Below are positions 2,188 through 63,009 of a stretch of 64,000 bases of DNA, one piece after another. The position numbers and the translations under genes were made by a program. Source of the DNA: Bacillota bacterium (GTDB lineage Bacteria; Bacillota; UBA994; UBA5500); the NCBI GenBank assembly GCA_050949055.1, contig JBMNFA010000009.1:257600-321599 (forward strand), written 5' to 3'. Under the pieces are notes generated by a model. That model searched no databases. It had not been told where the DNA came from and worked only from the letters and a program-made list of their open reading frames with translations. Within the stretch, counting starts at the first letter, position 1, and each line of letters begins with the position of its first letter.

Positions 2188-5100
2188 TCACTTGTTGTTA
2201 AGTTCTTTGATGAATTTGCAATCTTCTGCTGGATCGTCAATGGCCAGGAAAATGTCCGACTGTTCGTCTGGTTTGGCGACATTGACAAGTACCTCCAGCA
2301 ACTCACCCAGCGCCTGGATTGACTTGGGAGTTGCGTCGCTCAAGGTCAGCCGCAATCTACCACCTGCAGGTAGACCCAAGCCAGATAACTCCAGTTCATT
2401 GATTTGGGAGGAAGCACCGCGGCTGTAGATGCTGCCAAGACGCTTGAGCAGAGGCCACACTTTTTCCATTGCCTCAGGACCGGATAAGCGAACTCCCGGC
2501 CCGCCAGGAGAAGGCTGGTCAGGAGAAGGCTGGCCAGGAGGAAGTTGGCTAGTAGTAAGCCAACCTTTCTCTGCCACCTGTGCCCTGGTAATAAGCACAT
2601 CCTCTGGCTGCACTGTATAAATAGCAGCTGCTGCTCCTCCAACTAATGACTTAGGTTTTTCAGTTTGATCTGGAGTACCTTGATAGGCAAACAAGCTACC
2701 TTGCTGTAGCAAGCCGCCGACATTGTCCTGCCAGTCCTCAGCTGGAACTTCTCCATATTGCTCGGTCACTTGGTCCCGAACGCCCTCAGACGTTGAAGGG
2801 CCGGCACTGCCTAGGGTATAAAGTACCCTTTCCTGCAGCTTGGCTGGGTCAATTTTCTCTCCTTTTGTCCACCCTCTCTGCTTGGCTCCTTGGAGTGTGA
2901 TTAGAGAGTAGCCGCTGTTTAGCAAATCGGCGGAGAATGGCACCCCTGTGTCCTTATCGAAAAACTCGGCAGGTAGCGAACTGGCGGCGTCCCCCATCTT
3001 ATAGATGGCCCAGGTCCCCTTTTCTACCCCAGCTCGTAGCAGAGTGCCCAAAATCCTCGGACTCTCCAACACCGGCCAGTTGCGCATACAGACAAAGTTG
3101 CTGGCTAGCTTCTCAACTGTAACCGTATCGCCTTGAGCGAAGAAGTAGGTCTTCAGGTTGTTTAGGGTGGATTGGCCGGTATGCTGCGCGGTGAGCAGCT
3201 CACCATCCTCCAACAAGCCGCTCTTGATCGCCTCAATGAATGCCCGGCCAGATTCGCCAGAGGCGCTGCGGATCTCTCTGTAGACAATATGACCCGTGGT
3301 CGACGGGTAGTAAAGGCGACGATACGACTGTGCCACCAGCGTTTCCAAGCCCAATCCCTGCTGAGAGAAATGTTCGTGGACCTCCGCTTCTCGTAGGCGC
3401 CCCGGCGAGACGCCGTAAGTCTGCGGCTTGCTTTGTAACATCTGGATAGCGGACACATGCCGTGCGAAATCGAATAGGCGCTGCATAACCCTATCTGCCC
3501 CATTGGCATTCATGCCAGGAAGCTGCGCCTGCCCCATCTCCCCGGTTACTCGAACAGCATCCGGGGTCAGAAGAAAGACCAAATTCTGTTGCTCACGTGG
3601 TATGTTCGGGCCCTTGGTGGTAATCATTGCTTGTACGTCAACTGCCTCTGCCACTGGGCTAACAACAGCCAGAATAGGTCTGCCTTTTCCATCGGGTATG
3701 TGTTCCGGCAATGATACATCGTGCTCTATGTGGAAAAGGTCGGAGCGTTCAGCTATTACCTTTCGGGCAACGTCTGCCAACAGAGACTTGATCTGCTTGT
3801 CATTGACTGTGCGCCGTATGTGAGCCAGCACACTGTTAATGGTCGGTTCCTCGCTGGCAAAATACCGCCCCTGATCAGCGCGCAGATAAAAGGCACTACG
3901 TTTGATCTCTTCTAATGCAACCTGAACTTGGGCCGGAGTTAAGCCGGGCATGCTTACGGCTAATAGGCAGTCAGGTTCGTTTATGCCAAACAGATTTGAT
4001 CCCAGGCCTTGGGTGCGCCCCACCAAGCTGTGTAGAAATACCGTTTGCCAAGTGAATCTATAGAATGAATACCCTTCGGGGTGTGGATTCTCTTGATCAG
4101 CTCGCTCGGCGTTGCTTTGGCCCCCTTCCAAGCTTCCAGTATCGACGCCACCGACATCTGCGTTAAGCACAAACAGCAGATCCGAGCTTCCAGTGCGATT
4201 GAGGATCTCGTTGACCACCCGTTCCGACTTCAGCTCCAGATGGCTGGCGTGAATCATGGGGACAGCATGCTGGTTCTGCCAGAGACTGCGCACTGCTAAA
4301 GCCAACACACGCAGCACACCGCGGGTGCCCTGGAAATTCTCAGCGCCGGCTAATTTGTTATTCAAGAAATCCACCAACGTGGGATGGAAGGGGTAATTGG
4401 CCTGCAAGCGTTGACGATAGTTCTCGCTGCAGGCTTCTTGTGGCAAAAGGTTCTGGTTGCGCCGATATAACTCCATATATTCTGCTGCGGTCTCTTCGGC
4501 GGCCACACGGTCTATCAGTGAGAAGAGACGTTTGGCCAAGACTGCGGAGATCTCTCTGGCCTGTACCGGAGTAACCTGCACCGCATCGCGCGCCACCACA
4601 CTGCTGACATCCCGTATGGCGCGCTCCCCTAACCCAATCGCTTCTTCTGCCGAGATATCCTCGCCTCTCACAAGGCTAATCAACTTAGCCAAGCGATTCG
4701 TCTGCCGAGAGAATGCATCGGCGGCACTAGCTAGGGTGAGTATGATGGCGATTCCGCTATGAGTGCGGGCGTATCCATTCAACGACATCAGGAAAGCAGC
4801 CAGTTGACCGGCGCCATTTGGCCGCGCTGCTTCCAGACGGGCGGCATACTGCGCCAACTCGTCCAACATGATGATCACTTTGCGCCCTGTGAAGACGCGC
4901 TCGAAATAGGTTCGGCCTGGGGCAGCATATGACGTTGCTTCGCTTTCCACTGCGCGGTAAAGCTCTTCTCCTCCTACTTGGTAAGCGATCTCCCCCCACA
5001 AAGTGTAGGGAACTAAAGCATCGCCTTGCGGGCGATGTACGGGAATTTCGTCTCCCGGAACACCTGCCACTATTACTGAGCCAGGGTGCGGCAACAACTG

Positions 5101-5469
5101 CTCTGGAAGCAACTCATCGGTATACCCGGCCAACTTAGACCCTTGATAAGCAATGTGAGTACAAGCGATCAGTGTATGGGTCTTACCGCCACCAAACGCT
5201 GTCTCTAGGCGATGGATGGCCGGAGAGCCTGGATCACCTGCAATGCGACCAAACACTTCAGTCAGCGTTGTCCGAAGGCCCTGTGTAGGATAGGTGGCAT
5301 CGCGAAAGAACAGCTCCGCATCCGTGTAAATGCTATCAATGGGGGCCTTCCCCGAACGATAATACTGCAGGACTGGACCAAGTGATGCAGTAAAGACCTC
5401 GGGGTTAAAGGTACCCCGCAGAATCTCCTCACGCGGCATGCAGCTCTCAAGAACTGACCTCAAGTACAT
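2188..5469 (-). CDS. DUF499/BrxC-like large P-loop ATPase (1093 aa)
   Basis: ORF track. N-terminal Walker-A-like AFGGGKTHTL and Walker-B-like VIIMLDELAQY. Size and architecture are typical of the DUF499 ATPases that pair with DUF1156 methylases. SD AGGAGG precedes the ATG at 5467-5469. Confidence 0.7.
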   Translation of the reverse strand: MYLRSVLESCMPREEILRGTFNPEVFTASLGPVLQYYRSGKAPIDSIYTDAELFFRDATYPTQGLRTTLTEVFGRIAGDPGSPAIHRLETAFGGGKTHTLIACTHIAYQGSKLAGYTDELLPEQLLPHPGSVIVAGVPGDEIPVHRPQGDALVPYTLWGEIAYQVGGEELYRAVESEATSYAAPGRTYFERVFTGRKVIIMLDELAQYAARLEAARPNGAGQLAAFLMSLNGYARTHSGIAIILTLASAADAFSRQTNRLAKLISLVRGEDISAEEAIGLGERAIRDVSSVVARDAVQVTPVQAREISAVLAKRLFSLIDRVAAEETAAEYMELYRRNQNLLPQEACSENYRQRLQANYPFHPTLVDFLNNKLAGAENFQGTRGVLRVLALAVRSLWQNQHAVPMIHASHLELKSERVVNEILNRTGSSDLLFVLNADVGGVDTGSLEGGQSNAERADQENPHPEGYSFYRFTWQTVFLHSLVGRTQGLGSNLFGINEPDCLLAVSMPGLTPAQVQVALEEIKRSAFYLRADQGRYFASEEPTINSVLAHIRRTVNDKQIKSLLADVARKVIAERSDLFHIEHDVSLPEHIPDGKGRPILAVVSPVAEAVDVQAMITTKGPNIPREQQNLVFLLTPDAVRVTGEMGQAQLPGMNANGADRVMQRLFDFARHVSAIQMLQSKPQTYGVSPGRLREAEVHEHFSQQGLGLETLVAQSYRRLYYPSTTGHIVYREIRSASGESGRAFIEAIKSGLLEDGELLTAQHTGQSTLNNLKTYFFAQGDTVTVEKLASNFVCMRNWPVLESPRILGTLLRAGVEKGTWAIYKMGDAASSLPAEFFDKDTGVPFSADLLNSGYSLITLQGAKQRGWTKGEKIDPAKLQERVLYTLGSAGPSTSEGVRDQVTEQYGEVPAEDWQDNVGGLLQQGSLFAYQGTPDQTEKPKSLVGGAAAAIYTVQPEDVLITRAQVAEKGWLTTSQLPPGQPSPDQPSPGGPGVRLSGPEAMEKVWPLLKRLGSIYSRGASSQINELELSGLGLPAGGRLRLTLSDATPKSIQALGELLEVLVNVAKPDEQSDIFLAIDDPAEDCKFIKELNNK

Positions 5470-5620
5470 TCCCTCCTAAGAAGCTATTGCTTCGGTTTTC
5501 TAGCCGGTTTTCGACCGTATTAGACTCAGAACGATATTTTAGCTACTGGTATATGGAATTCCTGCGTTTGGAAGCAGTTGCTGTACCCAAGAAGCGCCTC
5601 GTATTTCGAGACGCCGACAT

Positions 5621-11683: not shown

Positions 11684-12213
11684 AGGGTATCACTCCTTTT
11701 TGGGCGTTGTATGTGGGTGTACTGGGAACCGGACCAGAGTTTTGTCAGGGATAGAATACGACAGCGAGCGGGCAATTCCCTTGCGAAAGAAGACCTTTCG
11801 CCGCTCATACTCCAGTTGCCCCGGCCGATCCTGGCGGCATGGCGGAGCTGGATCATCGTCGGGTCGCGCTGGAGGTAGTTCGTGCCATAGCCTGCCACAT
11901 TCGCGCCGATACTTAGCAAGACCAACAGGGGCAGCTCGCGAATGCGGAAAAACCGAAAACACCCTCTCTGCTAATTCAGCAGGAATCTTGCTCTCAGATG
12001 ACTAATTAAGTAGCGACCACAAGTATCTCCGAGTCTTCCAGTCCTAAGGATGTCATCTATGGAAGGAAGGCCGTTAGGGTGGCAGGGGAAACCCGGTCGC
12101 CTCCCGTCTGGAAAGGAGTAATCTGCGGCCGCTGACGCATGGCTTAGCTTGCGTCCGTTTGCCTTGCGCCTCCTTTTCAGAGCATGTTTGCTACTTGGAA
12201 AGGAGGTTTTTGC

Positions 12214-12735
12214 TTGCGCGGGAAATCGCCTGCTCTGGCGCGGGGCGCAATTCTGCTTTGCCTGCTGCTTGCTGTCGGCATGGCGTTAGTCTACCCCCGC
12301 CCGGGGCTGCCCTTTGAGGTGGCAGAGGGCGAAAAGGTGCGGCGGCTGAAGCAACACGAAGTTGATGATATCGTGGGGGTCTACCTGGCAGAAAGAGATG
12401 CGGGCAGTCGCCTGGTGCAAATCGTCAGCAGCCAAGGGTTTAAAGGCCTGATGCAGTTTCAGGTGGATATAGACCTGAACACCGAACAAATCAGCCAAGT
12501 ACGGGTGTTGTCCCAACAGGAGACCGAGGATTATGGCGGCTACGTCACCGAAGGCTGGTTCTTGGACAGATTTGTCGGCAAGAACGTCGGCACCAAGCTA
12601 AGATTAGTCAAGTTAGCGGCCAGCTCGCCAGAAGAAGTGGTGGCCATCACCGGAGCAACCGTCACCAGCCGGGGGGCTCTGGATGCGGTAAACAAATGCC
12701 TAGATAACTATCAGAGACTAAAACGGGAGGATTGA
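12214..12735 (+). CDS. membrane-anchored FMN-binding-domain protein (ApbE-type flavinylation motif)
   Basis: Start TTG at 12214 after SD AAAGGAGG (the ORF track starts earlier at 12184). N-terminal TM segment, then an FMN_bind domain with VVAITGATVTSRGALDAV (S/T-G-A-T/S flavinylation motif). Confidence 0.7.
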   Translation: MRGKSPALARGAILLCLLLAVGMALVYPRPGLPFEVAEGEKVRRLKQHEVDDIVGVYLAERDAGSRLVQIVSSQGFKGLMQFQVDIDLNTEQISQVRVLSQQETEDYGGYVTEGWFLDRFVGKNVGTKLRLVKLAASSPEEVVAITGATVTSRGALDAVNKCLDNYQRLKRED

Positions 12736-13850
12736 TGATCGTGAAGTTGACCAGGAAAGCGTTAGTCTATCTGTTGCTGATGGGCCTATTGGGCCTGCTG
12801 CTTACGGGCTGCTCCAGCCCGGCACCGATCGATGAGCCCAACAACCAGGAAGATGAAGGCGTAATAGCGTTCATTGGCCTGCCGGATGGCGACAAGGAGA
12901 TCGCCGTGGCTGATCTGAAGGAAATGGAGCCATATGAGACTGAGGCGTTAGGGATCAGCTCTTCGGGCGAAGAGGCCACCCATGAGGTGAAGGGCGTGCT
13001 ATTGGCCGATCTGCTGACCGACTGGGGAGTGGAGCAGCAAAGTCTGCAGAGCATCCGTGCGGTGGCCAAGGATGGCTATGCCATGGAACTGCCGGGCGAG
13101 ATTCTGCAGGGCGAAGTGATCCTGGCCTATGAATACGATGGAGAGCCCCTGTTTGAAGAAAGCGGCCCCATCCGCTTGATCGTGCCCAATCAGCGCTCCA
13201 TGTATTGGCTGAGGGGACTGGCCAGCCTGGAGATCAGCGGCGGAGGCAGCGGAGCGACTGCAGAGACCGACGCAACTAGAATTGTGTTCATCGAGACAGC
13301 TATCGGTTTGGTGCCCCATTATGACTACACCTATTACGAGAGCAATGACCAAGCAGTGAAGGTGGACGAGCTGTTTGCCAAGCTGGGCATAGAGGCCACC
13401 GAAGGCACTGCAGCCCTGTGCGCAGCCGACGGCTTCGAGAAGAACGAGCAGGTAGCCACCCTGCGGCAAGGCTATCTCAAGTTCACTGGAGAAGCAGCAC
13501 CGCTGTTCCTCTCCCCCGACCTGCCCAAGGGCATGCATGTGAAGCAGATCCTGTGGATGGCCGTGGAAGATACGGCGCTGGTTTCCTTCGTGCATGCGGG
13601 CGAGGCGTGGGAACAGAAGACGGTGGGAGACATCTCCGGCGTGCCGCTGACCGCCATTTTAGAGCAGGTTGGGGTACAGTCGGATGTGGGCTATATTCTC
13701 AAGGCGAGTGATGACTACACGGTGGAAATCGAGGCGGCCGACGCGGCCGATGGGCTGGTCTACATCAAGGATGACGTTGTGCGGGTCAGCTTCAGCCAGC
13801 TGCCCAAGAGCAGCAGCGTCAAGGGCCTGCTGAGTATCGAAGCCAAGTAG
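12732..13850 (+). CDS. lipoprotein with two tandem sulfite-oxidase-fold (YedY/MsrP-like) domains lacking the Mo-ligand Cys
   Basis: Lipobox LLTGCSS. Domain 1: VKGVLLADLL...AVAKDGYAMELP...VILAYEYDGEPLFEESGPIRLIVPNQRSMYWLRGLASLEI, parallel to the SO-family pattern WTGVxLxDLL...LAYEMNGEPL...PLRLVVPGWYG..KWL..IEV. The CAGNRR cysteine position reads GISSSG. A second weaker copy lies at residues ~200-372. Confidence 0.6.
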   Translation: MMIVKLTRKALVYLLLMGLLGLLLTGCSSPAPIDEPNNQEDEGVIAFIGLPDGDKEIAVADLKEMEPYETEALGISSSGEEATHEVKGVLLADLLTDWGVEQQSLQSIRAVAKDGYAMELPGEILQGEVILAYEYDGEPLFEESGPIRLIVPNQRSMYWLRGLASLEISGGGSGATAETDATRIVFIETAIGLVPHYDYTYYESNDQAVKVDELFAKLGIEATEGTAALCAADGFEKNEQVATLRQGYLKFTGEAAPLFLSPDLPKGMHVKQILWMAVEDTALVSFVHAGEAWEQKTVGDISGVPLTAILEQVGVQSDVGYILKASDDYTVEIEAADAADGLVYIKDDVVRVSFSQLPKSSSVKGLLSIEAK

Positions 13851-39434: not shown

Positions 39435-39527
39435 TCGATATAAATGGCGGAGAGGGCGGGATTCGAACCCGCGATGCAACTTTCGCCGCATACTCGATTT
39501 CCAGTCGAGCGCCTTCGACCAGCTCAG
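39435..39527 (-). tRNA. tRNA-Ser (anticodon GGA), CCA encoded
   Basis: Folded by hand: 7-bp acceptor GGAGAGG/CCUCUCC, anticodon loop CUGGAAA, long variable arm, T-loop GGUUCGAAUCC, 3' GCCA. Confidence 0.85.
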
Positions 39528-39791
39528 CCACCTCTCCGTGTTTACGGGGTTGTTATGAGGCATTGGTCTCTCCTCAGAACCGTCACAAATCCATTCGATT
39601 TGGCACTTGCACGCTCAAACAGTATACCGCACAGGCACTGTCATGTCAATGTCCACTGTCTTCCACCAGGCGCGTTGCTTTATCAAACAGACAGCGTCTG
39701 CTGTTGTAGCTGCAGCTTCAGCGGTTTATAACTTGTGTCTTTAGTGTAAGTCCCATTTACGGGAGTATTCAAGTTTTTTTGGAAGCAGCTT

Positions 39792-45841: not shown

Positions 45842-45932
45842 TGGCGGAGAGAGAGAGATTCGAACTCTCGGAGCAGGGTCACTGCTCACCCGCTTTCGAG
45901 GCGGGCGCCTTAAACCACTCAGCCATCTCTCC
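45842..45932 (-). tRNA. tRNA-Ser (anticodon CGA), CCA encoded
   Basis: Acceptor GGAGAGA/UCUCUCC, anticodon loop CUCGAAA, long variable arm, GCCA end. Confidence 0.8.
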
Positions 45933-45933
45933 G

Positions 45934-46398
45934 CTAAGTGTTTTGACGCAGTTCCAGGAAAAACTTGCGCAGGAGCTGGCTGCTGGCATCCGCCAATACG
46001 TCAGGAATCACTTCCACCTGGTGGTTCAACCGTTGGTGTTGCACCAGGTTCAGCACACTGCCGCAAGCGCCTGCCTTGGGATCGGCTGCCGCATAAACCA
46101 AGGTAGGAATGCGGGCCAAAACGATGGCACCGGCGCACATGGCGCAGGGCTCCAGCGTGACGTAGAGGGTGCAACGGGTTAAGCGCCACCCACCCAGATG
46201 CTGATTGGCCAATCGAATGGCTAGCAACTCGGCGTGGGCCGTGGCATCGTGGGTCGTCTCGCGCAGGTTATGCGCTCTGGAGATGATCTCACCGTCGCGC
46301 ACGATCACCGCACCGATAGGCGTTTCACCAAGGGCGTAGGCTAACTTGGCCTCGTTCAGTGCCTCGCGCATGAAAAGCTTGTGTTGCTCCACGCGCAA
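45934..46398 (-). CDS. tadA: tRNA-specific adenosine(34) deaminase TadA
   Basis: HAELLAI...LYVTLEPCAMCAGAI (CDA zinc motif HAE...PCxxC), 154 aa. TTG start with AGAGGG SD. Confidence 0.88.
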   Translation of the reverse strand: MRVEQHKLFMREALNEAKLAYALGETPIGAVIVRDGEIISRAHNLRETTHDATAHAELLAIRLANQHLGGWRLTRCTLYVTLEPCAMCAGAIVLARIPTLVYAAADPKAGACGSVLNLVQHQRLNHQVEVIPDVLADASSQLLRKFFLELRQNT

Positions 46399-46498
46399 AA
46401 CCCCTCTTTCGCTGCCGAAATTCGTGCGCTACGCACAGACAGCTCTAATTCAAGTTGCAGAAGTGCCTATATGCAGACCATTGAAGGTTAACTGCCAG

Positions 46499-46574
46499 TG
46501 GTGCACCCGGAGGGAATCGAACCCCCGACACGCGGTTTAGGAAACCGCTGCTCTATCCCCTGAGCTACGGATGC
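46499..46574 (-). tRNA. tRNA-Arg (anticodon CCU)
   Basis: 76-nt cloverleaf, anticodon loop UUCCUAA, CCA encoded. Confidence 0.85.
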
Positions 46575-46661
46575 AAGCCATCAAAGAAAACAAAAAACAT
46601 TTGCCGCCCAGAAAAAGAAAAGCGAAACAAAAAGAACCGTCCCTTTTGTTTCAGTAAGGAG

Positions 46662-46738
46662 TGGCGCGCCCGGCAGGATTCGAACCTGCGACCACCGGAT
46701 TCGTAGTCCGTTACTCTATCCAGCTGAGCTACGAGCGC
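46662..46738 (-). tRNA. tRNA-Arg (anticodon ACG; the TadA substrate)
   Basis: 77-nt cloverleaf, anticodon loop CUACGAA, CCA encoded. Confidence 0.85.
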
Positions 46739-46746
46739 ATGAGAAA

Positions 46747-46841
46747 TGGCGGAGAGGGCGGGATTCGAACCCGCGACACAGGTTTAAGCCCGTGTAATCG
46801 CTTAGCAGGCGACCGCCTTCGACCTACTCGGCCACCTCTCC
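46747..46841 (-). tRNA. tRNA-Ser (anticodon GCU)
   Basis: 95 nt, long variable arm, anticodon loop CUGCUAA, GCCA end. Confidence 0.85.
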
Positions 46842-46910
46842 GCATCGCCTAACTATCATAGCACAGAATGGGGTTGCCTTCAACTGCAACCTTCTGGCAG
46901 CAGATAGTAA

Positions 46911-46999
46911 TGGCGGAGAGAGAGGGATTCGAACCCCCGGTCCCTTGCGGGATCACTAGTTTTCAAGACTAGCGCCATAAACCGCTCGGCCATCTCTCC
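46911..46999 (-). tRNA. tRNA-Ser (anticodon UGA)
   Basis: 89 nt, anticodon loop CUUGAAA, 7/5 acceptor/T arms so not tRNA-Sec, GCCA end. Confidence 0.85.
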
Positions 47000-47069
47000 G
47001 CATTTGCGAGTATCGCAAAAAACAGTTTACCACAGAACGATGAAAAGTGTCAATTTTGGCGGTCTGCCA

Positions 47070-48347
47070 TCATCTGGCCGGATCGATTTTATCTATGCCC
47101 AAATAGGGCCGCAGCACTTCTGGCACAATTACGCAGCCAGCGGCAGTCTGATAGTTTTCCAATATGGCCGCCACGGTGCGATCGATGGCCAGACCGGAAC
47201 CGTTCAATGTGTGCACGTATTCCGGCTTGGCTTTCGGCTCCGGCCGGAAACGGATGTTGGCCCGCCGCGCCTGGAAGTCTTCGAAATTGCTCACCGATGA
47301 GATCTCCACGTAGCGATCGTAGCTGGGCATCCATACCTCGGGATCATACTTCTTGCTGGCGGTGAAACCGAGATCGCCGGTGCACATCTGCATGATGCGA
47401 TAAGGCAGGCCCAGCAGCTGCAGGATGTGTTCGGCATCGCCCAGCAGCTTCTCCATCTCTGCATAGGAAGTTTCGGGGTGAACAAACTTGACCAGCTCCA
47501 CCTTATGGAATTGGTGCATGCGGATCACTCCCCGCGTGTCGCGCCCCGCCGAGCCGACCTCTGAACGGAATGAGGGACAGTAGGCCACGTGATAGATGGG
47601 CAGGCGGCTTCCATCCAAAATCTCGTCCCGATAGAGATTGGTCACCGGAACCTCTGCCGTCGGGTTGAGGAACCAGTCTTCGTTGGCCAGCTTAAAAGCA
47701 TCTTCTTCAAACTTGGGCAGTTGACCGGTGCCAGTCATGCTGGTGCGGTTGACGATGTAAGGTGGGGCCACCTCGGTATATCCGTGTTGGTTGATGTGTA
47801 CATCCAGCATGAAGTTGATCACCGCCCGATGCAGGCGCGCGCCCCAGCCTTTGTAGACCACGAAGCGGGCACCGGTCACCTTTACCCCGCGCTCCCAGTC
47901 GATGATATCCAAATCGGTGCCAATTTCCCAATGGGGTTTGGGCACAAAGTCGAAGGTGGGCGGAGTACCCCAATCACGCAAGAAAACGTTCTCCTTGTCG
48001 TCTGCGCCTACCGGCACGCTGGCATGGGGCAAGTTGGGGATGGTGAGCAGCTGGTATTCCAACTCTTCCTCCACTGTCTTTAGCTCGCCATCCAACTCCT
48101 TGATGCGTTGGCCCACCTGTTTGGTCTCTTCGATCAGCTCGCTGGCATCTTCTTTGGTACGCTTGCGGCGGGCAACTTCTTTGGAGGCTAGGTTGCGTTG
48201 ATTCTTCAGCTGTTCCACTTCCACCAAGATATCGCGGCGGCGGGCATCCAGTTGCAGGAACTGATCCAGGCTAGCCTGCTCCCCTTTGCTCTCGATCGCC
48301 TGTTTCACAGTGTCCACGTTGGCTCGAATGAATTTGGCATCTAACAT
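47070..48347 (-). CDS. serS: seryl-tRNA synthetase
   Basis: ATG 48345-48347 ([12 protein letters not shown]...). Class II motifs [27 protein letters not shown]. Confidence 0.95.
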
Positions 48348-48399
48348 GCTTCTACCGTCTCCTTTCAAAAAACAATCTAGGCATTGCATCACGCTATCA

Positions 48400-48727
48400 T
48401 ATCGCCTGCATCCCGTGGCGTGGCCACCATGCAGAACCATCAAGTCCCTTCTCTGCGACCGGAACGACAGTTGGGCCGGGGGTTCCGCAAACTATGTAGC
48501 CAGAAAAAACAACGTCCCTCACATCTCTGTGAGGGACGAGCAAAACCCGCGGTACCACCCTGTTTGGCCACACTGCGGTGTGACCCCCTTGCTGCAGATA
48601 ACCGCTGCTGCGGAGCCAGGATTAGGCTGGCTAGCTCGGAAGTGGACTTGCCTGCGCCAGTCGCGATTTGCACCAACCATCGCGTCTCTATATCTGGCCG
48701 TCAAACAAACGTCTTCGTCATGGCTTT
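48400..48727 (-). promoter_or_regulatory. T-box riboswitch leader of serS (T-box AGGGUGGUACCGCGGG; terminator CGUCCCUCACA-GAGA-UGUGAGGGACG + UUGUUUUUU)
   Basis: Canonical T-box sequence seen as its reverse complement at 48547-48560. Intrinsic terminator at 48507-48546. About 380-nt leader between promoter and start codon. Specifier not resolved (UCC in ACUUCCGAG is a candidate). Confidence 0.8.
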
Positions 48728-55720: not shown

Positions 55721-56785
55721 TTATTCTTCGCGGCCTAGCAGGGAAGCGGCCAACTGCAGGCTGACAACGCCGGTGATCAGCAGGTATCCGACGGAGAAGG
55801 CGCTGGGGTCGACCCCATGAATCAGATACTCGCGCACAACCTGGGCGCTGATCAGCGTGGGCACGGTGCTGGTCAGGCGCTCCAACCAGACCGGCAGGGT
55901 TACAGGCAGGGAAGCCAAGAACATGGCCGGCAGCGTGAGCACAAAGCGCCAGCCGTTGCCCTCGTTGGCCCCGCGTACGTAAGTGCCTACCAATAGACCG
56001 AGCGAAACTGAGTTAAAAGTAACCAGCAGCATGGTCAGATAGAATACCGGGTCGGCCAGAAAGGCTGCCGGCATCAAGAGCCAGATCAACAGCACGATCA
56101 GGGTTAGCGGCAACAGGCTGCTGAACAGGGCGGCACCCAACTTGGCCCAGATGATCCCCTGGTCTGACAGCGGCGACTTGCGCAGGGAAACCAGCGTCTT
56201 CTTGTCCCGTTCCATGCTGATGCTCTGCTGTCCTAGGCTGAGGGCAGTCATTACCCCCATGATCACAAACAGTGATGAAAAGACTAGCTGTGCCGCCGAG
56301 CTCACCTGTTCCCCCGTATCATGGGCTTCCCAGCGAATTGACGCCAGCACTTCCCCGGGGTCAGGCATCATCTGGGAAAGCTTCTGCTCGGCCAAGCGAA
56401 GATTCAGCTGCTGCACAAACTCTGCAAACAGTGCTTCTGCCACTGCCCCGGCGGTGTTGGCTGTATTGGCGTACATCCGTGCCGAGTCCGGCTGCAGCAG
56501 GATGTAGGCATGCAGTACTCCGGCTTGCAGCCTGCGCTCCGCCTCCTCTGCCCCTAGGCGGTAGGTGGTCAAGTGTATCTGCTCGTTGTCCTGTTTGGCC
56601 GCCTGCTCCAAGTAGGTGATCAGTTGCACATCGCCCACCAGACCGACAGCCACTTCCATTGCCTGCCCCTGCAGGTAAATGTTCACCGCCAACAGGATTA
56701 TGGGCAGCATAATCATCCACAGCAGTTCCCGCCGATTGCGCAGCACCGTACGAATATCCTTACGCAACAGAACCAGCGCTCTCAT
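55721..56785 (-). CDS. ABC-2-family transporter permease
   Basis: 354 aa, 6 TM. Confidence 0.7.
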   Translation of the reverse strand: MRALVLLRKDIRTVLRNRRELLWMIMLPIILLAVNIYLQGQAMEVAVGLVGDVQLITYLEQAAKQDNEQIHLTTYRLGAEEAERRLQAGVLHAYILLQPDSARMYANTANTAGAVAEALFAEFVQQLNLRLAEQKLSQMMPDPGEVLASIRWEAHDTGEQVSSAAQLVFSSLFVIMGVMTALSLGQQSISMERDKKTLVSLRKSPLSDQGIIWAKLGAALFSSLLPLTLIVLLIWLLMPAAFLADPVFYLTMLLVTFNSVSLGLLVGTYVRGANEGNGWRFVLTLPAMFLASLPVTLPVWLERLTSTVPTLISAQVVREYLIHGVDPSAFSVGYLLITGVVSLQLAASLLGREE

Positions 56786-57684
56786 CGACCGCCCTCCTGA
56801 TAGACCCGCTGATAGATCTCCTCCAATGCAGCCGTTTGCTTGCTGATATCCAATACATCTATGCCCTGTTCCACCAGCGTGCGCAGCACCGGATTCAACC
56901 GCTCCGGCTGGTCTGGCACTGCCAGCGTCTGCGGCAGCTGGTCGCTGGCCAAATTGCTTAGGCTATCGGGCACCTGCTCCACTCTGATCAGCAGGCGGTC
57001 CTGAAAGCCGTAGCGTCGCTTGATCTCGGTCATGGTACCTGACGTGACCAAACGCCCCTCTTTCATGATGCCAATTCGATGGCAGAGACCAGCCAGCTCT
57101 TTCAGGTTGTGCGAGGAGATGATCACCGTCAGGTCGCCCTCGGTGAGCAGATAGGCGATAAAGTCACGCAACCCCTGCATAGCCACCGGGTCCAACCCGG
57201 AAAATGGTTCGTCCAGAAACAGCAGCTTCGGCCGATGAATGCAGGCGGAGAGAATGGAGACCTTCTTGCGCATGCCAGTGGACAGTTTGCCCACCAACTG
57301 GTGGCGCCACTCTTCCATCTCAAATCGCTGCAGCAACTCCCGCACAGGCGCTTTCACGCTGTAGAGGTCTGCAAAGAAACGCAGCGTCTCCTCGACGGTC
57401 AATTCATGATAAAGACGCAGATCTTCGGTCAGCAGGCCGGTGATGGTACGGATTTTGGACCTTTGCTTGACCAAGTCGTGTCCCAGGATGAGAGCGCTGC
57501 CATCGGTGGGAGTGAGCAACGTATTCAGTAGCATGAAAGTGGTGGTCTTTCCGGCACCGTTATGGCCGATCAGACCAAAGATGGTGTTCTCCGGAATGGT
57601 GATGGATAGGTTCTTGACAGCTACTGTGCTGCCCAAGCGGCTGATGAAGGCCTTGGTCAAGCTGTCGGTGGTCACTGCGTTCAA
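56782..57684 (-). CDS. ABC transporter ATP-binding protein
   Basis: GHNGAGKTT, LSTGMRKKVSI, LFLDEP. Confidence 0.85.
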   Translation of the reverse strand: MNAVTTDSLTKAFISRLGSTVAVKNLSITIPENTIFGLIGHNGAGKTTTFMLLNTLLTPTDGSALILGHDLVKQRSKIRTITGLLTEDLRLYHELTVEETLRFFADLYSVKAPVRELLQRFEMEEWRHQLVGKLSTGMRKKVSILSACIHRPKLLFLDEPFSGLDPVAMQGLRDFIAYLLTEGDLTVIISSHNLKELAGLCHRIGIMKEGRLVTSGTMTEIKRRYGFQDRLLIRVEQVPDSLSNLASDQLPQTLAVPDQPERLNPVLRTLVEQGIDVLDISKQTAALEEIYQRVYQEGGR

Positions 57685-57690
57685 TGATGT

Positions 57691-58179
57691 CTAGCCTCCC
57701 TGATGCTGCTGGTCCCGCCAGAAGGCAGCGATCGCTTGCTGATAGATCCACTTCACCGGGCGACCGCTGGTTTTGGCCAGGCGTCGGCAATCCTCATATT
57801 CGGGAGCCACGTTGTGCAACTTCTCTCCCAGGTAGCCCAGCTTTATCCGTACGCTTCCACCCGGCACCTGCACAGCTACCTGCCTGCGCTCCAACATCCG
57901 TCGCCAAGCCAGGCTGTGGCGGACACCCAGGCTACTACTTTGCTCCAGGATGACGGCTGAGAGCTGCTCCGCCCGCTCCGGTCGGCAGATAACGGTGAGC
58001 AGGATGCTCGGGCGCTGCTTCTTCATCTGTACCGGCTGCAGCAGCACATCCAGTGCTCCCGCCGAGAATAGCGATTCCATGATATCCTGATACAGTTCCG
58101 GGTTCTGGTCGTCCAAGTTGGTTTCCAGCACGACCACCTGATCCGCTAAGTAAGCCGACTGCCAGCCAGCAACTGCCGG
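57691..58179 (-). CDS. larC: LarC C-terminal domain segment (nickel-pincer cofactor nickel insertase), in the same frame as and directly after the in-frame TGA of the N-terminal segment
   Basis: VVLETNLDDQNPELYQDIMESLFSAGALDVLLQPVQMKKQRPSILLTVICRP matches the LarC C-domain. Frame is open from 58179. First in-frame GTG at 58137. Confidence 0.75.
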   Translation of the reverse strand, partial: PAVAGWQSAYLADQVVVLETNLDDQNPELYQDIMESLFSAGALDVLLQPVQMKKQRPSILLTVICRPERAEQLSAVILEQSSSLGVRHSLAWRRMLERRQVAVQVPGGSVRIKLGYLGEKLHNVAPEYEDCRRLAKTSGRPVKWIYQQAIAAFWRDQQHQGG

Positions 58180-59148
58180 TCAGTAGTTGCTCTCTGGCCT
58201 GGTCTCGGGTTCAGCCTGGTGTTCCCCATTCCCGCAGGGGCAGCTCTGCGTGTGGCCGCTTTCCGCTTGCTCTGGACCATGGCAGCTGTGAGGATGAGTA
58301 TGATCATGGTGATCACTGTGGGGGTGAGCATGATCATGGTGGTGATCACTGTGGGGGTGAGCATGATCATGGACATGAGCGTGCACTCCCCCATGGCTAT
58401 GCTGCGGAGACGCGGCTACGCCGACGCTACTCTCGCCGATGACAACCCGCAACACGTTGGCTACCGGCAGATCTTTCTGACCAGCTCCATAACCCACCAT
58501 CTGGGGCTTGAGCTGAGGGAAAACGCCAAAGTCCTCTGCCAAAGCAACCATCAGGGCGGCACCAGTCGGCGTCACCAGCTCCGCGCGTTGGCCGTTATCG
58601 TAGAGGGGAACGTTGCGCAGGGCCAGCAAGGCCAGCGTGGCCGGGGCGGGTACAGGAATGATGCCATGGGCAGAGCGCACCTGGCCGCCACCGGTGGGCA
58701 GGGCGGAGCAGAACACCTGCTCTATTTCCAGGGCATGCAGTCCGATGCAGGCACCGACGATGTCCACGATGGCATCAACCGCCCCCACCTCGTGGAAGTG
58801 CACCTCTTCCGGGGTGCTGCCATGAATCCTGGCCTCCGCCTGGGCCAAAACCGTGAACACCTGCAGGCTCCGTTCCTTGACGGCGGCGGGCAGGCCGCTC
58901 TGTTCGATGATCTGGCTGATCTCCGGCAGCCCACGGTGTACGTGGCCCTCTTCCGCGTTCACTTGCACCGAGGTGGCCGCCAGGCCGCATTTCTGCACCT
59001 TGCTCACCGACAGGCTGAACTCCGGCAGATGCAGCTGGTTTAGTCCGTCCTCCAACACCTCCAGGGGCAGCCCCGCATCCAGCAGCGCCCCCAACGTCAT
59101 ATCCCCGCTGATCCCAGAGAAGCAATCAAAATAAGCTACTTTCATCAT
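58180..59148 (-). CDS. larC: LarC N-terminal domain segment (DUF111) with a His-rich linker, ending at TGA 58180-58182
   Basis: MMKVAYFDCFSGISGDMTLGALLDAGLP, HFHEVGAVDAIVDIVG. The His-rich tail is encoded by tandem repeats. Confidence 0.8.
   Translation of the reverse strand: MMKVAYFDCFSGISGDMTLGALLDAGLPLEVLEDGLNQLHLPEFSLSVSKVQKCGLAATSVQVNAEEGHVHRGLPEISQIIEQSGLPAAVKERSLQVFTVLAQAEARIHGSTPEEVHFHEVGAVDAIVDIVGACIGLHALEIEQVFCSALPTGGGQVRSAHGIIPVPAPATLALLALRNVPLYDNGQRAELVTPTGAALMVALAEDFGVFPQLKPQMVGYGAGQKDLPVANVLRVVIGESSVGVAASPQHSHGGVHAHVHDHAHPHSDHHHDHAHPHSDHHDHTHPHSCHGPEQAESGHTQSCPCGNGEHQAEPETRPESNY
58301..58372. repeat. tandem direct repeat (period 30/33 nt, about 2.3 copies) encoding the HAHPHSDHH His-rich linker of larC
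   Basis: TGATCATGGT(G)GTGATCACTGTGGGGGTGAGCA repeated. Coding, not CRISPR. Confidence 0.85.
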
Positions 59149-59985
59149 CTAGACACCTCGCTTGCGATTGATCAGGCTGGCAGCATAGCCAGCCCCGAAA
59201 CCATTATCGATGTTTACCACAGTGACGCCGGCAGCACAGCTAGTCAGCATGCCCAACAGCGCCGACAGGCCCTGGAAGTTGGCACCATACCCTACGCTGG
59301 TGGGCACTGCGATCACCGGCACATCCACCAGACCGCCTACCACACTGGCCAGCGCCCCTTCCATCCCGGCTACCACCACCACAACCCGCGCCTGTTGCAG
59401 GCGGTCCCGCTTGTCCAGCAAGCGGTGGATACCGGCTACGCCCACATCGTATATGCGCTCCACCGCGTTGCCCATGATGGCAGCGGTGAGGGCAGCCTCT
59501 TCCGCCACCGCCATATCTGCCGTGCCGGCTGAGACGACCAGCACCAGTCCTTCGCCATAGGCAGTGCTGCGATCCCGCCAAACGGTGATCGCCTTCGCTT
59601 CTGGATGGTACTCCGCCAGTGGCAGCACCTCAGCCACAGCCTGATAAGTGGCGCTGCTGGCGCGGGTGGCCAGCACGTTCTGGGAGCGGTCAGCCAACCG
59701 CTTCATGATGGCGACAATCTGTTCTGTGGTCTTGTTGGGACAGTAAACCACCTCTGGAAACCCAGACCGGATACCACGATGATGATCCAGCTTGGCAAAG
59801 CCCAGGTCTTCGTAGGGAAGATCTTTCAGTCGCCGGAACGCTGCCTCCGCCTCCACTTCGCCGGAAGCCACCTGTTGCAGCAGTTGTCTTAAAGTTGCCT
59901 GATCCAATAGTCCGTCCTCCCAAAGGTTATTGCGTTGCTGAAGCTGTGGGTGCAGGAATAGTCTCATCCTGTCCCGAAGTCTCAT
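59149..59985 (-). CDS. larB: LarB (nickel-pincer cofactor biosynthesis carboxylase/hydrolase, PurE-like)
   Basis: PurE-like fold block VVSAGTADMAVAEEAALTA...VAGMEGALASVVGGLVDVPVIAVPTSVGYG. Position immediately upstream of larC. Confidence 0.75.
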   Translation of the reverse strand: MRLRDRMRLFLHPQLQQRNNLWEDGLLDQATLRQLLQQVASGEVEAEAAFRRLKDLPYEDLGFAKLDHHRGIRSGFPEVVYCPNKTTEQIVAIMKRLADRSQNVLATRASSATYQAVAEVLPLAEYHPEAKAITVWRDRSTAYGEGLVLVVSAGTADMAVAEEAALTAAIMGNAVERIYDVGVAGIHRLLDKRDRLQQARVVVVVAGMEGALASVVGGLVDVPVIAVPTSVGYGANFQGLSALLGMLTSCAAGVTVVNIDNGFGAGYAASLINRKRGV

Positions 59986-60014
59986 ATCACAATTATAGCG
60001 AAAAGGAGTTGAGA

Positions 60015-61994
60015 ATGTTGCGAAAAACCCTGGAAATGGTCCAGCGAGAGTTCTCCGGCCAGAGAGCATTTAACCATGTGGCCGAGGTCTGCCAGCATCA
60101 TCGCATCCAAGCTAGCCCCGGCTTCCGGCAAGCGGCCATCTATTGTCGACAGGTGCTGGAGGATTGTGGCCTGGACGCCGAGATTATCACTTTCCCGGCT
60201 GATGGCAAAACCATGTATTGGACCCAACAGATGTTTGAAGAGTGGGATTGCCAGCAGGCCCGGTTGGATTTGCTTTTCCCCCAGGCGGAATGCCTGGCTG
60301 ACTTTTCTGCCGAGCCGATGTCCTTGATCCAGCGCAGCGTCAGCACACCGCCAGAGGGTATTGAGGCAGACATCGTCTGGCTAAATCAAGGTGACGACCC
60401 AGAACCCTACCAGGGTTGGGACCTGAACGGCAAGCTGGTGTTCACCGACGGTGACTGGAATAAGGTGCGGGCCTGGGCGGTGGAAAAGCAGGGCGCTTTG
60501 GGCATCATCAGCGACCGCCTGATGGAGTTCCCGCCGGTTCGCCACCGTTTTGATATTCCCGATGCCCTGATGTACACCTCCTTCTGGTGGACAGGCCATG
60601 AGCAGCGCTGCTTCGGCTTTGTGCTCTCACCCAAGGCTGGCGACAAGCTGCGCCGCCAGTGTCAGGAGATGTGGCAGGCCCATCAGCAGGATGGAAGCCG
60701 CCCCGCTTATCCGCGGGCGAAGGCTGTGGTACAGGCCTCCTGCTACAGCGGTTCACTGGAGGATGTAACGGCGCTGATCCCTGGGGAAAGCGATGAGGAA
60801 GTGATCATCGCCGCCCATCTCTGCCATCCGCGGGCGTCTGCCAACGACAACGCCTCCGGGGTAGGCACGGCACTGGAAGCTGCCCGCGCCCTGCAGAGCC
60901 TGATCCAAAAGGGGTGCTTGCCCAAGCCTAAACGGGGCATACGCATTCTCCTGATCCCCGAGATGACCGGCACCTATGCCTACCTGGCTACGCGGGAAGA
61001 TCAGATTGGCAAGATTAAGGCGGCGATCAATCTGGACATGGTGGGCGAAAATCAGGCATTGTGTCAAGGTCCGCTGGTGGCGGAATATCCGCCCCAAGCC
61101 GCCACATCCTTCGTGGGCGATGTCCTGGCTGCCATCATGGGGCTGGTGGCCGAGGAGAGCACCAACCTGGGCGGCAGCTCTGCCTATGCGCTGTTCAAGC
61201 ACACTACGGCGCCGTTTTCTGGAGGCAGCGATCATTACATCTTCTCCGACCCGACGGTGGGGGTGCCTTGCCCGATGCTGATCCAATGGCCGGACAAGTA
61301 TTATCATACCAGCGAAGATACATTGGACAAAGTTGACCCGGAGATGCTCTACCGGGTGGGCTGCATGACCGCCACCTACGCCTACTACCTGGCTAATTTG
61401 GGGTGGTCGGAACTGCCCTGGTTGCTCGCTGAGTGTCGAGGCCGCTATCTGAATCAGGTGCAACGGCTGCTCACCCCGCAGGGCGACCCGCGGCCTGCCT
61501 GTGAACTGAAGGAGCAGCTGGACTACCTGCTGCAGCAACGGGTTGACCAGCTGTCCGATCTCCGCCGCTTCGTGCCAGCGGATCAAAAGACCGCACTGAA
61601 GCAGGAACTAGAGCGAGAGCAGCAATTGCTGACCAGCGTCACCGAGCAGCTGTGGCAGAGATACGTCGGCGATCAACAGGTCACGGCCGCCGGGAGGGAA
61701 GTCCCTGCTGAGTACCAGGTTATACCCAAACGGCTGTTCAAGGGCCCGGTCAGCATGCGCGGCAAGCTGGAGCTGTTGAGCGAGGCGGAGCGGGCGGAAT
61801 ATGCCGCGTATGCCAAACAGCATGCGGCGGCAGCCAAGATAATGCCCACCTATTTGGTCTATTGGGCGGACGGCCAACGCACGGTGGCCGAGGTGGATCA
61901 TCTGGTGAAGATGGAGACGGGCATCAGTGACCCGGCGTTTGCCTTACGCTACTTCCAACTGTTGGAGCGTTTGGGTTTAGTGACCTGGGCATAG
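60015..61994 (+). CDS. M28-peptidase-like / DUF4910-type aminopeptidase-like hypothetical protein
   Basis: ATG 60015 after SD AAAGGAG. His/Asp/Glu-rich central block (AAHLCHPRASANDNASGVG...DMVGEN) reminiscent of M28 metal ligands. Family from memory. Confidence 0.4.
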   Translation: MLRKTLEMVQREFSGQRAFNHVAEVCQHHRIQASPGFRQAAIYCRQVLEDCGLDAEIITFPADGKTMYWTQQMFEEWDCQQARLDLLFPQAECLADFSAEPMSLIQRSVSTPPEGIEADIVWLNQGDDPEPYQGWDLNGKLVFTDGDWNKVRAWAVEKQGALGIISDRLMEFPPVRHRFDIPDALMYTSFWWTGHEQRCFGFVLSPKAGDKLRRQCQEMWQAHQQDGSRPAYPRAKAVVQASCYSGSLEDVTALIPGESDEEVIIAAHLCHPRASANDNASGVGTALEAARALQSLIQKGCLPKPKRGIRILLIPEMTGTYAYLATREDQIGKIKAAINLDMVGENQALCQGPLVAEYPPQAATSFVGDVLAAIMGLVAEESTNLGGSSAYALFKHTTAPFSGGSDHYIFSDPTVGVPCPMLIQWPDKYYHTSEDTLDKVDPEMLYRVGCMTATYAYYLANLGWSELPWLLAECRGRYLNQVQRLLTPQGDPRPACELKEQLDYLLQQRVDQLSDLRRFVPADQKTALKQELEREQQLLTSVTEQLWQRYVGDQQVTAAGREVPAEYQVIPKRLFKGPVSMRGKLELLSEAERAEYAAYAKQHAAAAKIMPTYLVYWADGQRTVAEVDHLVKMETGISDPAFALRYFQLLERLGLVTWA

Positions 61995-62070
61995 TATAAC
62001 CGTGGCGAAATGCCGCAGGCCTAGCGACGGGCAGGCCTGCGGCCATGGCCAAGGTGTGAGGAGGAATGAC

Positions 62071-63009
62071 ATGCACATACTGATCACTCAAAAGCCAACC
62101 GAGGAACAGCTATCTGCAATTCGGGAACTGCTTCCCGAGGCAACGATCACGGTCACCCGGGAAGAAGAAGAGATCAGGCAAGCGATGCGCACTGCGGAAG
62201 TGATCTGGGGAAGTCACTATTTGCCCGAGATGCTGCCGGAGGCAAAGAGCCTGCGCCTAATTCAGGTAGCCTTTGCCGGAGTGGATCGACTGATGGTGCC
62301 GCAGCTGCTGGCCCATAAAGCCGTGCTGGCCAACGCCCGGGGCATTCACGGAACAACCATTGCCGAGCACGTGTTCATGTTGATGCTGGCTCTTGCCCGT
62401 CAGCTGCCTGCCACCATGCGAGCAGCTGACCGCAAGGAGTGGACAAGGACCGGAGCCGCGGTACTGGAAGGCAGTACTATGGGAATAGTCGGTTACGGCA
62501 GCATCGGACAAGCCATCGCCAGACGGGCTAAAGCCTTTGGCATGCAGGTATTGGCCACCCGTCGCCATGCCCAGCCCGATCAGTGGGCTGATCAGGTGTG
62601 GGATAATAGCGGCCTGCCCGACCTGCTAAGGCAGTCGGATTACGTGATCTTGGCAACTCCACTCACCACGGAGACCTATCATCTGATTGGCTCCGAGGAG
62701 TTGGCCATGATGAAGGACTCGGCGGTGTTGGTGAATATCGCCCGCGGCGCTGTGGTAGACGAGAAAGCGTTAATCGCCTGTCTACAAGCAGGAGGAATCA
62801 GGGGTGCCGGATTGGACGTATTTGAAACGGAGCCGCTGCCTGCGGACAGTCCTCTCTGGTCGATGCCCAATGTGGTGATCACTCCGCATCAGGCAGGCAG
62901 CATGCCAGACTATGACCAACGGGCCTTCGCCGTCTTCATGGACAACCTGAAGCGCTTGCAGGCTGGCGAACCACTGCTAAACGTGGTTGATAAGCAAGCG
63001 GGCTACTAA
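62071..63009 (+). CDS. D-isomer-specific 2-hydroxyacid dehydrogenase (NAD-binding)
   Basis: ATG 62071 after SD GAGGAGG. GIVGYGSIGQAIARRA (Rossmann), catalytic R/E/H triad context ARGAVVDE...TPHQAG. Confidence 0.85.
   Translation: MHILITQKPTEEQLSAIRELLPEATITVTREEEEIRQAMRTAEVIWGSHYLPEMLPEAKSLRLIQVAFAGVDRLMVPQLLAHKAVLANARGIHGTTIAEHVFMLMLALARQLPATMRAADRKEWTRTGAAVLEGSTMGIVGYGSIGQAIARRAKAFGMQVLATRRHAQPDQWADQVWDNSGLPDLLRQSDYVILATPLTTETYHLIGSEELAMMKDSAVLVNIARGAVVDEKALIACLQAGGIRGAGLDVFETEPLPADSPLWSMPNVVITPHQAGSMPDYDQRAFAVFMDNLKRLQAGEPLLNVVDKQAGY

Follow-up and report, generated by a model that had tools for sequence, protein, structure and literature searches.

If a gene is interrupted by an in-frame stop codon and yet both of its halves are intact, then it may encode two polypeptides, be read through the stop, or be in the course of decay. 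This question is raised by larC in a Bacillota bacterium of the lineage UBA5500 (GenBank assembly GCA_050949055.1, contig JBMNFA010000009.1, positions 257,600 to 321,599). The whole stretch of 64,000 nucleotides that was analysed is called the window, and coordinates are those of the window unless a relative is named. LarC inserts nickel into the nickel-pincer cofactor (the lactate-racemase cofactor), forming its nickel-carbon bond. According to the initial annotation of the window, two larC open reading frames (ORFs) lie in one frame and are separated only by a TGA at 58180-58182, the first encoding LarC1 with a His-rich linker and the second a CTP-binding LarC2. The ORF ends agree with this layout, and matches to PF01969, TIGR00299 and NF052512 agree with the identity of the pieces. 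With moderate confidence, we favour a natural two-piece LarC in which LarC1 ends at the UGA and LarC2 would be re-initiated on the same mRNA at a GTG, either 58131 or 58137.

Both halves of the gene are intact and conserved. The first, larC1 (58180-59148, minus strand; coding part 59148-58183), encodes 322 aa and ends in the TGA. Its ATG is abutted by the TAG stop of larB and is preceded at 5 nt by the Shine-Dalgarno (SD) sequence GAGGTG (-12.7 kcal/mol). The product comprises the LarC1 catalytic domain (residues 1 to ~240) and then a linker tail of ~80 aa rich in His and Cys. It matches PF01969 at profile positions 1-235 (313.7 bits), NCBIfam TIGR00299 nickel_LarC1 (222 bits, cut-off 90) and M. 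thermoacetica LarC (PDB 12bi, 245 bits). M. thermoacetica LarC has residues that were shown to be essential, namely E104 and the His cluster H108/H116/H118/H160; these are all conserved in the alignment to 12bi and are invariant over 13 homologues, and the H70/H72 motif is shifted (HVHR in the window versus HRH in M. thermoacetica). Beyond the TGA the frame stays open for 162 codons, up to a TAG at 57693-57691, and this part contains larC2 (57691-58137, minus strand), which would encode 148 aa from GTG 58137 or 146 aa from GTG 58131. This is a complete CTP-binding LarC2 domain, as judged by matches to PF01969 (positions 239-375, 161 bits), NCBIfam NF052512 nickel_LarC2 (positions 3-118 of 118, 145.7 bits, cut-off 50), the crystal structure of LarC2 from Lactobacillus plantarum (6bwo) and the cryo-electron microscopy (cryo-EM) structure 12bi. 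The catalytic residues of LarC1 and the motifs of LarC2 are all present, and no further disabling changes were found in LarC2. Additionally, no promoter-like or terminator-like site was found between the two pieces or elsewhere inside the operon on the minus strand.

The TGA (58180-58182, minus strand, context UGA-C) lies in the interdomain linker, which spans ~95 codons and is rich in His and Cys. Part of this linker is a 33-nt tandem repeat at 58286-58372 (Tandem Repeats Finder, 89% matches), and it encodes the His-rich motif of HAHPHSDHH type that had been noticed initially, although in 2.7 copies of the 33-nt unit rather than the 2.3 first counted. The stop had also been placed inside this repeat. 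It is instead 104 nt (~35 codons) downstream of the repeat end, in the non-repetitive tail of the linker, and repeat slippage, put forward as one origin of the stop, is not involved.

The initial annotation suggested a comparison with related strains, and these differ at the stop codon. The 90%-identity cluster of the 322-aa protein includes a 485-aa member, P0242, whose contig (L093, from JGI metagenome 3300060804) shares 99.925% identity with 5.3 kb of the window. Inside larC the two differ by only two bases, one of which turns the TGA into CGA (Arg) and gives an uninterrupted LarC of 485 aa. Another contig, L095 (JGI 3300062814), is 99.2% identical to the window, has 10 private single-nucleotide polymorphisms in 2 kb, and also carries TGA. 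Since two haplotypes that were assembled independently, those of the window and of L095, both have the TGA, it is a real stop, and TGA/CGA at 58182-58180 is a natural polymorphism. P0246, from another data source, is a separately called, 5'-complete LarC2 ORF of 146 aa, and the stop is therefore implied on further contigs. Overall, TGA occurs on at least two haplotypes, and of the two alleles it seems to be the more common one in the assemblies seen. In the tree of the three haplotypes (window, L093 and L095), that of the window lies at the node; midpoint rooting favours TGA as the ancestral state, whereas the outgroup codon, CGG in L090, favours CGA. In the region L095:1143-2144, this contig also has one extra in-frame 33-nt repeat unit (3.7 versus 2.7 units in the window). 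Repeat copy number thus differs between 99%-identical strains, and therefore the length of the nickel-binding tail is variable within the population. As a separate observation, an inverted repeat at 58161-58198 on the minus strand (AGCAACT/AGTTGCT, outer GCCAG/CTGGC) could form a hairpin with the TGA in its loop; the fold of 100 nt has no significant advantage in stability over shuffled sequence (z = -1.0), and the relatives do not show the repeat.

On a wider scale, the whole clade is split at this junction. The 12 LarC1 clusters closest to the window (63-78% identity) have lengths of 251-325 aa and end after the His-rich tail in every case (12/12), with no fused variant in the 90% clusters of these close relatives, while LarC homologues beyond them are ~400 aa long and fused. 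A separate LarC2 ORF is present beside larC1 in all nine of the clade relatives that were fetched. A natural LarC1/LarC2 arrangement, one of several possibilities raised at the outset, is thereby borne out, in that every close relative is split at the same place. For more distant LarC, 80 loci from other phyla (<=56% identity) were taken from among the matches listed in a genome-collection scan with the LarC1 protein; among these listed matches, 78 are fused in one frame, one is cut by a contig end and one (L078) changes frame. In the last of these, a metagenome-assembled genome of Candidatus Gallacutalibacter, LarC1 and LarC2 are in different frames with an A9 run at the junction (L078:4040-4140, GGTAAAAAAAAACATCAGAGCTGA); the run is a candidate slippery site like that of the L. 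plantarum frameshift, or else a homopolymer sequencing error. A DNA-pattern scan of metagenomes for the clade motif YDNGQR.ELVTPTGAA returned a single contig, identical to the L085 lineage.

The nine relatives share the gene order 2-hydroxyacid dehydrogenase, DUF4910/M28 peptidase, larB, larC1, larC2, ABC transporter, of which the transporter is missing in L085 and where the contig ends early. They differ in how LarC2 follows LarC1. In group A (the window, L081, L082 and L090) it comes after an in-frame TGA. In group B (L085) it is in another frame, with its own ATG and a 41-nt overlap with larC1. In group C (L083, L087, L088, L089 and L091) the second ORF is ~350 aa long and consists of an extra domain of ~190 aa and then LarC2. 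LarC2 can thus be a separate polypeptide, because L085 has an own-frame LarC2 with an ATG and the five group C relatives have a second ORF. In neighbour-joining trees of five genes, group A is a clade in four of the five and is nested inside group C; because of this nesting, the three-part layout is the older one, and group A and, independently, L085 have lost the extra domain by deletion. The window retains a trace of this history. Between its TGA and the first GTG are 14 codons (58138-58179, minus strand, PAVAGWQSAYLADQ), whose GWQSAYLADQV is homologous to the GWQSSYLQDQV found where the L087 extra domain ends. These codons are what is left of the C-terminus of the extra domain that the older relatives have.

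The extra domain itself (L083:4975-5550, L087:4447-5034, L088:4869-5468, L089:4773-5387 and L091:1633-2220) opens with a motif of 'HIDVHS.L.L...AAL' type that resembles the LarC N-terminus. Its similarity to the last third of LarC1 is weak but collinear (hhalign E=0.003, 11% probability), and alignments to Pfam and custom hidden Markov models (HMMs) extend collinearly back to the last third of LarC1. The domain alone gives E ~0.5 against the LarC HMM, and a database search with it returned no hits. It may be a degenerate LarC1 copy that acts as an adaptor.

The history of the stop can be followed by aligning codons without gaps, with the invariant Asp that precedes the first LarC2 strand as the anchor. 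The window TGA is at codon -13, where L093 has CGA, L081 and L082 have GGA (Gly) and L090 has CGG (Arg). In L081, L082 and L090 the TGA is at -7 instead, a codon that is TGG (Trp) in the window and in L087 and TGC (Cys) in L083. The in-frame TGAs of the sister lineages are therefore not the same one and lie at a distance of six codons. The base that follows the stop also varies, being C in the window and A, A and G in L081, L082 and L090, respectively. In the latter three, the TGA at -7 persists despite a synonymous divergence (dS) of ~1.5 among them, with LarC2 at a ratio of non-synonymous to synonymous divergence (dN/dS) of 0.067. Because this group keeps its stop with LarC2 under purifying selection, an in-frame UGA in the linker is compatible with long-term retention of LarC2. 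Between the window and L081, dN/dS is similar for the two pieces (LarC2 0.107, LarC1 0.115).

The codons just downstream of the two stops have evolved differently. No coding substitution pattern is seen in the four codons after the TGA in L081, L082 and L090. Between the window and L087, there are 6 synonymous and 2 non-synonymous codon differences over codons -8 to +1, and 7 of 10 base changes are in third positions (p=0.02). As this coding pattern persists although dS between the two lineages is saturated, the stretch was translated for most of the window's history, and by this pattern the window stop would be either young or read through.

How, then, could LarC2 be made from the window allele? 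The first in-frame start after the TGA is a GTG at the 15th codon (58137), as had been noted initially, and it is followed by GTC and by a second GTG (58131). The accompanying statement that the start has no SD holds for GTG 58137 only. GTG 58131 is immediately preceded by an SD-like AGGTGGTC (58132-58139, minus strand), which pairs at -8.4 kcal/mol with an assumed 16S 3' end, not read from this genome. The same motif, an SD-like AGGTG and then GTG, is found in L081 and L082 and in weaker form in L090, and is absent at the same codons in relatives having another start. GTG 58137 and GTG 58131 align to NF052512 positions 1 and 3 (V338-V340), and the product from GTG 58131 would begin with VLETNLDD, which resembles the M(I/V)LETNIDD of stand-alone LarC2 from Thermoanaerobacter and the MLETNIDD of P0173. 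In the older relatives, the second ORFs overlap larC1 and have weak SDs (-6.6 to +0.4 kcal/mol); because of this, translational coupling seems to be a habit of the operon.

From these features we infer the start codon used, the mechanism of re-initiation and the assembly of the pieces in trans. In the proposed mechanism, a strain-variable UGA in a long, flexible interdomain linker would divide an otherwise fused larC into a gene of two pieces. LarC1 (322 aa, the catalytic domain with its His-rich tail) would terminate at the UGA, and ribosomes would re-initiate 45-51 nt further on, with GTG 58131, after the SD-like site, a likelier start than GTG 58137. The product would be a stand-alone LarC2 of 146-148 aa, whose N-terminus would match those of the stand-alone LarC2 of Thermoanaerobacter and of the sister lineages. 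LarC1 and LarC2 would then form a non-covalent complex, with a LarC2 hexamer as its core and LarC1 trimers, and a minor fraction of ribosomes may read the UGA-C through to give the 485-aa fused form.

Several observations weigh against this reading. The SD-like site is moderate: five neighbouring gene starts have values of -10.9 to -13.8 kcal/mol, 13% of internal start-like codons reach -8 by chance, so that the site is not significant relative to these, and it is weak in L090. Unlike the long-split relatives, which have a start directly before the invariant Asp (GTG at -1 in L081, L082 and L090; ATG at -2 in L085), the window has no start codon there, and LarC2 made here would therefore be without that Asp. 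The codons after the window TGA appear to be still protein-constrained, which suggests that the stop is young and leaves the long-term viability of the window allele unproven. Lastly, deletion or alteration of the covalent linker in M. thermoacetica LarC cut activity to less than 10% (PMC13510736).

Some of the same observations would also fit the main rivals. The allele may be a young loss-of-function one, a C-to-T transition (CGA to TGA) in a recently fused larC, with little useful LarC2 made and cofactor synthesis being lost; we regard this as possible but doubtful. A recent nonsense mutation had been proposed initially, and it stands insofar as the CGA in a 99.9%-identical strain, with its full 485-aa ORF, and the coding pattern after the TGA indicate a stop that is young on the scale of the clade. 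The Arg codon (CGG) of L090, the lack of a start before the invariant Asp, the merely moderate SD and the fact that NCBI annotates only the 322-aa piece as LarC are in keeping with decay as well. However, the TGA is shared by two or more haplotypes, with 10 differences between them in 2 kb, and is apparently the commoner allele, LarC2 has no other disabling changes, the sister lineages with a TGA six codons away keep LarC2 under strong purifying selection, and the clade as a whole works with separate pieces. An error of assembly or sequencing in the window, also suggested initially, is very improbable. It could be imagined from the sense codon on the near-identical contig L093 and from the nearby repeat region, but the difference is a substitution, not an indel, and is well away from the repeat, the TGA is reproduced on a different haplotype in an independent assembly from another sample (L095), and separate 5'-complete LarC2 ORFs were called on further contigs (P0246).

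The remaining rivals require that the UGA be decoded. Reassignment of UGA was rejected, as TGA ends about one third of long ORFs and is not scattered inside genes. The finding that all LarC1 ORFs end in TGA was likewise discounted as the sign of a special stop: in the oldest relatives the overlapping second ORF has the codons ATT GAT (Ile-Asp), which contain the TGA, and at the remaining LarC1 ends it is non-significant because background TGA usage is ~33-60%. UGA is the stop most easily misread by tRNA-Trp, and UGA-C is reported as the weakest terminator context in Escherichia coli. In functional read-through, UGA-C would be decoded, probably as Trp, Arg or Cys, to yield fused 485-aa LarC together with excess LarC1, and LarC2 would not be initiated separately; by its programmed frameshift, L. 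plantarum makes a comparable mixture of LarC1 and LarC. We consider such read-through unlikely. Of the read-through raised initially, the in-frame layout is the only positive signal, with none found beyond it: the parts are exactly in frame at all group A loci despite the two TGA positions. Also compatible with it are the replacement of a Trp codon by the sister-lineage TGA, the coding pattern of codons -8 to +1, the position of the invariant Asp upstream of the window's only start codons, the tolerance of a fused protein shown by the natural CGA allele, and the importance of the covalent linker in M. thermoacetica LarC (PMC13510736). On the other hand, the conserved stop and context that are the hallmark of read-through were not found, given TGA at -13 versus -7, C, A, A or G as the next base and a sense CGA in L093. 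When the RNA downstream of the UGA was folded for four loci, it was no more stable than shuffled sequence (z = -0.11 to +1.43) and there was no shared hairpin. Moreover, the four codons that follow the TGA of L081, L082 and L090 show no coding pattern in their evolution, read-through is impossible for the relatives with an out-of-frame LarC2 (L085 and group C), and a young stop accounts equally well for the coding pattern in the window. A related and still less probable idea is that the UGA is a leaky stop kept by selection, which would determine how much free LarC1 is made relative to fused LarC1-LarC2, as a convergent read-through counterpart of the L. plantarum frameshift. If so, linkers in this clade would change again and again from a stop to a sense codon and back (TGA/CGA in the window strains, and TGG/TGA in the sister lineage), and this toggling would tune the assembly of the nickel-inserting complex or switch it at the population level. 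Selenocysteine insertion, which had been offered together with read-through, has next to no probability. The UGA is in a metal-binding tail with nearby Cys (SCPCG), and the sister-lineage TGA aligns with a Cys codon in L083. However, no hairpin resembling a selenocysteine insertion sequence (SECIS) directly follows the UGA in any of the four loci, where folding energy equals that of shuffled sequence and nothing is conserved; the codon homologous to the window TGA is never Cys, but Arg (L093, where it is the natural sense variant, and L090) or Gly (L081 and L082); the position is in a non-conserved linker; there is no tRNA-Sec among the six tRNAs of the 64-kb window; and the selenoprotein candidates scanned are not selenoproteins.

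The two-piece LarC that we favour can be set beside known systems. In L. plantarum, LarC1 and LarC2 are two ORFs joined by a programmed ribosomal frameshift, and LarC1, with a His-rich nickel-binding region, is ended by a stop (PMC13510736). The window is similar in its split point, which closely precedes the first strand of LarC2, since the L. plantarum LarC2 crystal construct starts ADAVLMIEANLDDQ, which aligns with ADQVVVLETNLDDQ in the window, and also in having a His-rich first piece that a stop codon ends. It differs in that the L. plantarum ORFs do not share a frame and the frameshift bypasses the stop, whereas the window ORFs share one frame, no slippery site is needed, or evident, at their junction, and no recoding signal is evident either; the window arrangement is thus not of the L. 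plantarum frameshift type. Stand-alone LarC2 (NF052512, such as the 143-aa 'LarC family nickel insertion protein' of Thermoanaerobacter) is likewise a polypeptide of its own, of ~145 aa and with a matching start, but the window start has a moderate SD inside a recently continuous ORF. The fused LarC of M. thermoacetica (cryo-EM structures 12bi-12bl) has the same two domains and the same catalytic residues, and the CGA allele P0242 is a single chain like it. The linkers are very different, however: that of M. thermoacetica has 13 residues and is sensitive to alteration (PMC13510736), whereas that of the window has ~95, is rich in His and Cys, bears repeats and is interrupted by the UGA. Finally, re-initiation or coupling in bacterial operons resembles the window arrangement in that a stop is followed by a start within ~50 nt, with a weak or moderate SD and no promoter between, although the junctions of the older relatives overlap or abut and the gap in the window is longer (45-51 nt).

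The genes around larC are organized similarly in the window and its relatives. Upstream, larB (59149-60069 as a mechanical ORF, minus strand; NCBIfam LarB equivalog, 302 bits, cut-off 175; Pfam AIRC) probably has its true start near 59967, according to a 272-aa gene call on the near-identical contig L093. Downstream, the next gene of the same operon encodes an ABC-transporter ATPase (56782-57684, minus strand, by Pfam), with the SD GGGAGG (-10.9 kcal/mol) within the last codons of larC2. This ATPase and an ABC-2 permease (together 55721-57684, minus strand) follow larC2 in the same operon in most relatives and are absent from L085; the pair is possibly metal-related. larB lies directly upstream of larC1, and neither larE nor larA was found among the neighbouring genes scanned. 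Divergent from larB-larC, on the plus strand at 59895-63009, are genes for a DUF4910/peptidase-M28 protein (699 aa) and a D-2-hydroxyacid dehydrogenase. The same divergent pair adjoins larB-larC in the window and in eight of nine relatives, with no larA or larE adjacent. According to a recent report, NAD-type oxidoreductases adjoining lar genes can use the nickel-pincer cofactor (PMC13524815), and because of this report the dehydrogenase beside larB is a candidate user of the cofactor.

Elsewhere in the window, three tRNA-Ser and two tRNA-Arg genes are clustered at 45842-48491 on the minus strand beside the gene for seryl-tRNA synthetase (47070-48491), and a fourth tRNA-Ser gene is at 39445-39537. 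A molybdenum cofactor (Moco)/tungsten riboswitch (Rfam RF01055, 73 bits; 12015-12134, plus strand) precedes by ~570 nt an ORF (12708-13850) with a molybdopterin-oxidoreductase domain, and a 1095-aa protein with DUF499 and DUF7744 domains is encoded at 2188-5475 on the minus strand.

Naming of the larC pieces is mixed. The only member of the LarC1 cluster with an NCBI name or accession is the 322-aa piece, called LarC, and the LarC2 ORF is present in the protein collection only as JGI and Logan gene calls of 146-152 aa with differing starts; the locus is therefore annotated inconsistently across sources. For annotation, the 322-aa 'LarC' and the uncalled LarC2 ORF belong together, and a pseudogene flag would be unwarranted without evidence.

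Two-piece LarC as such is already recognised, since NCBI models LarC1 and LarC2 separately. What is new here is the form with an in-frame UGA, its strain-level toggling with a sense codon, and a whole clade that has long been split, with some members carrying an additional uncharacterised domain on LarC2. A 2026 cryo-EM study of the fused M. thermoacetica LarC concluded that the covalent interdomain linker is critical for activity (PMC13510736). The clade described here would be a natural counter-example to this linker requirement, with separate polypeptides in some members, a separation by nothing but an in-frame UGA in others, and one near-identical strain in which the protein is fused. The TGA and CGA alleles, which are only two nucleotides apart within larC, form a matched natural pair that bears on whether LarC1 and LarC2 function in trans and on whether some fused protein is needed, as well as on why two-piece LarC arose repeatedly.

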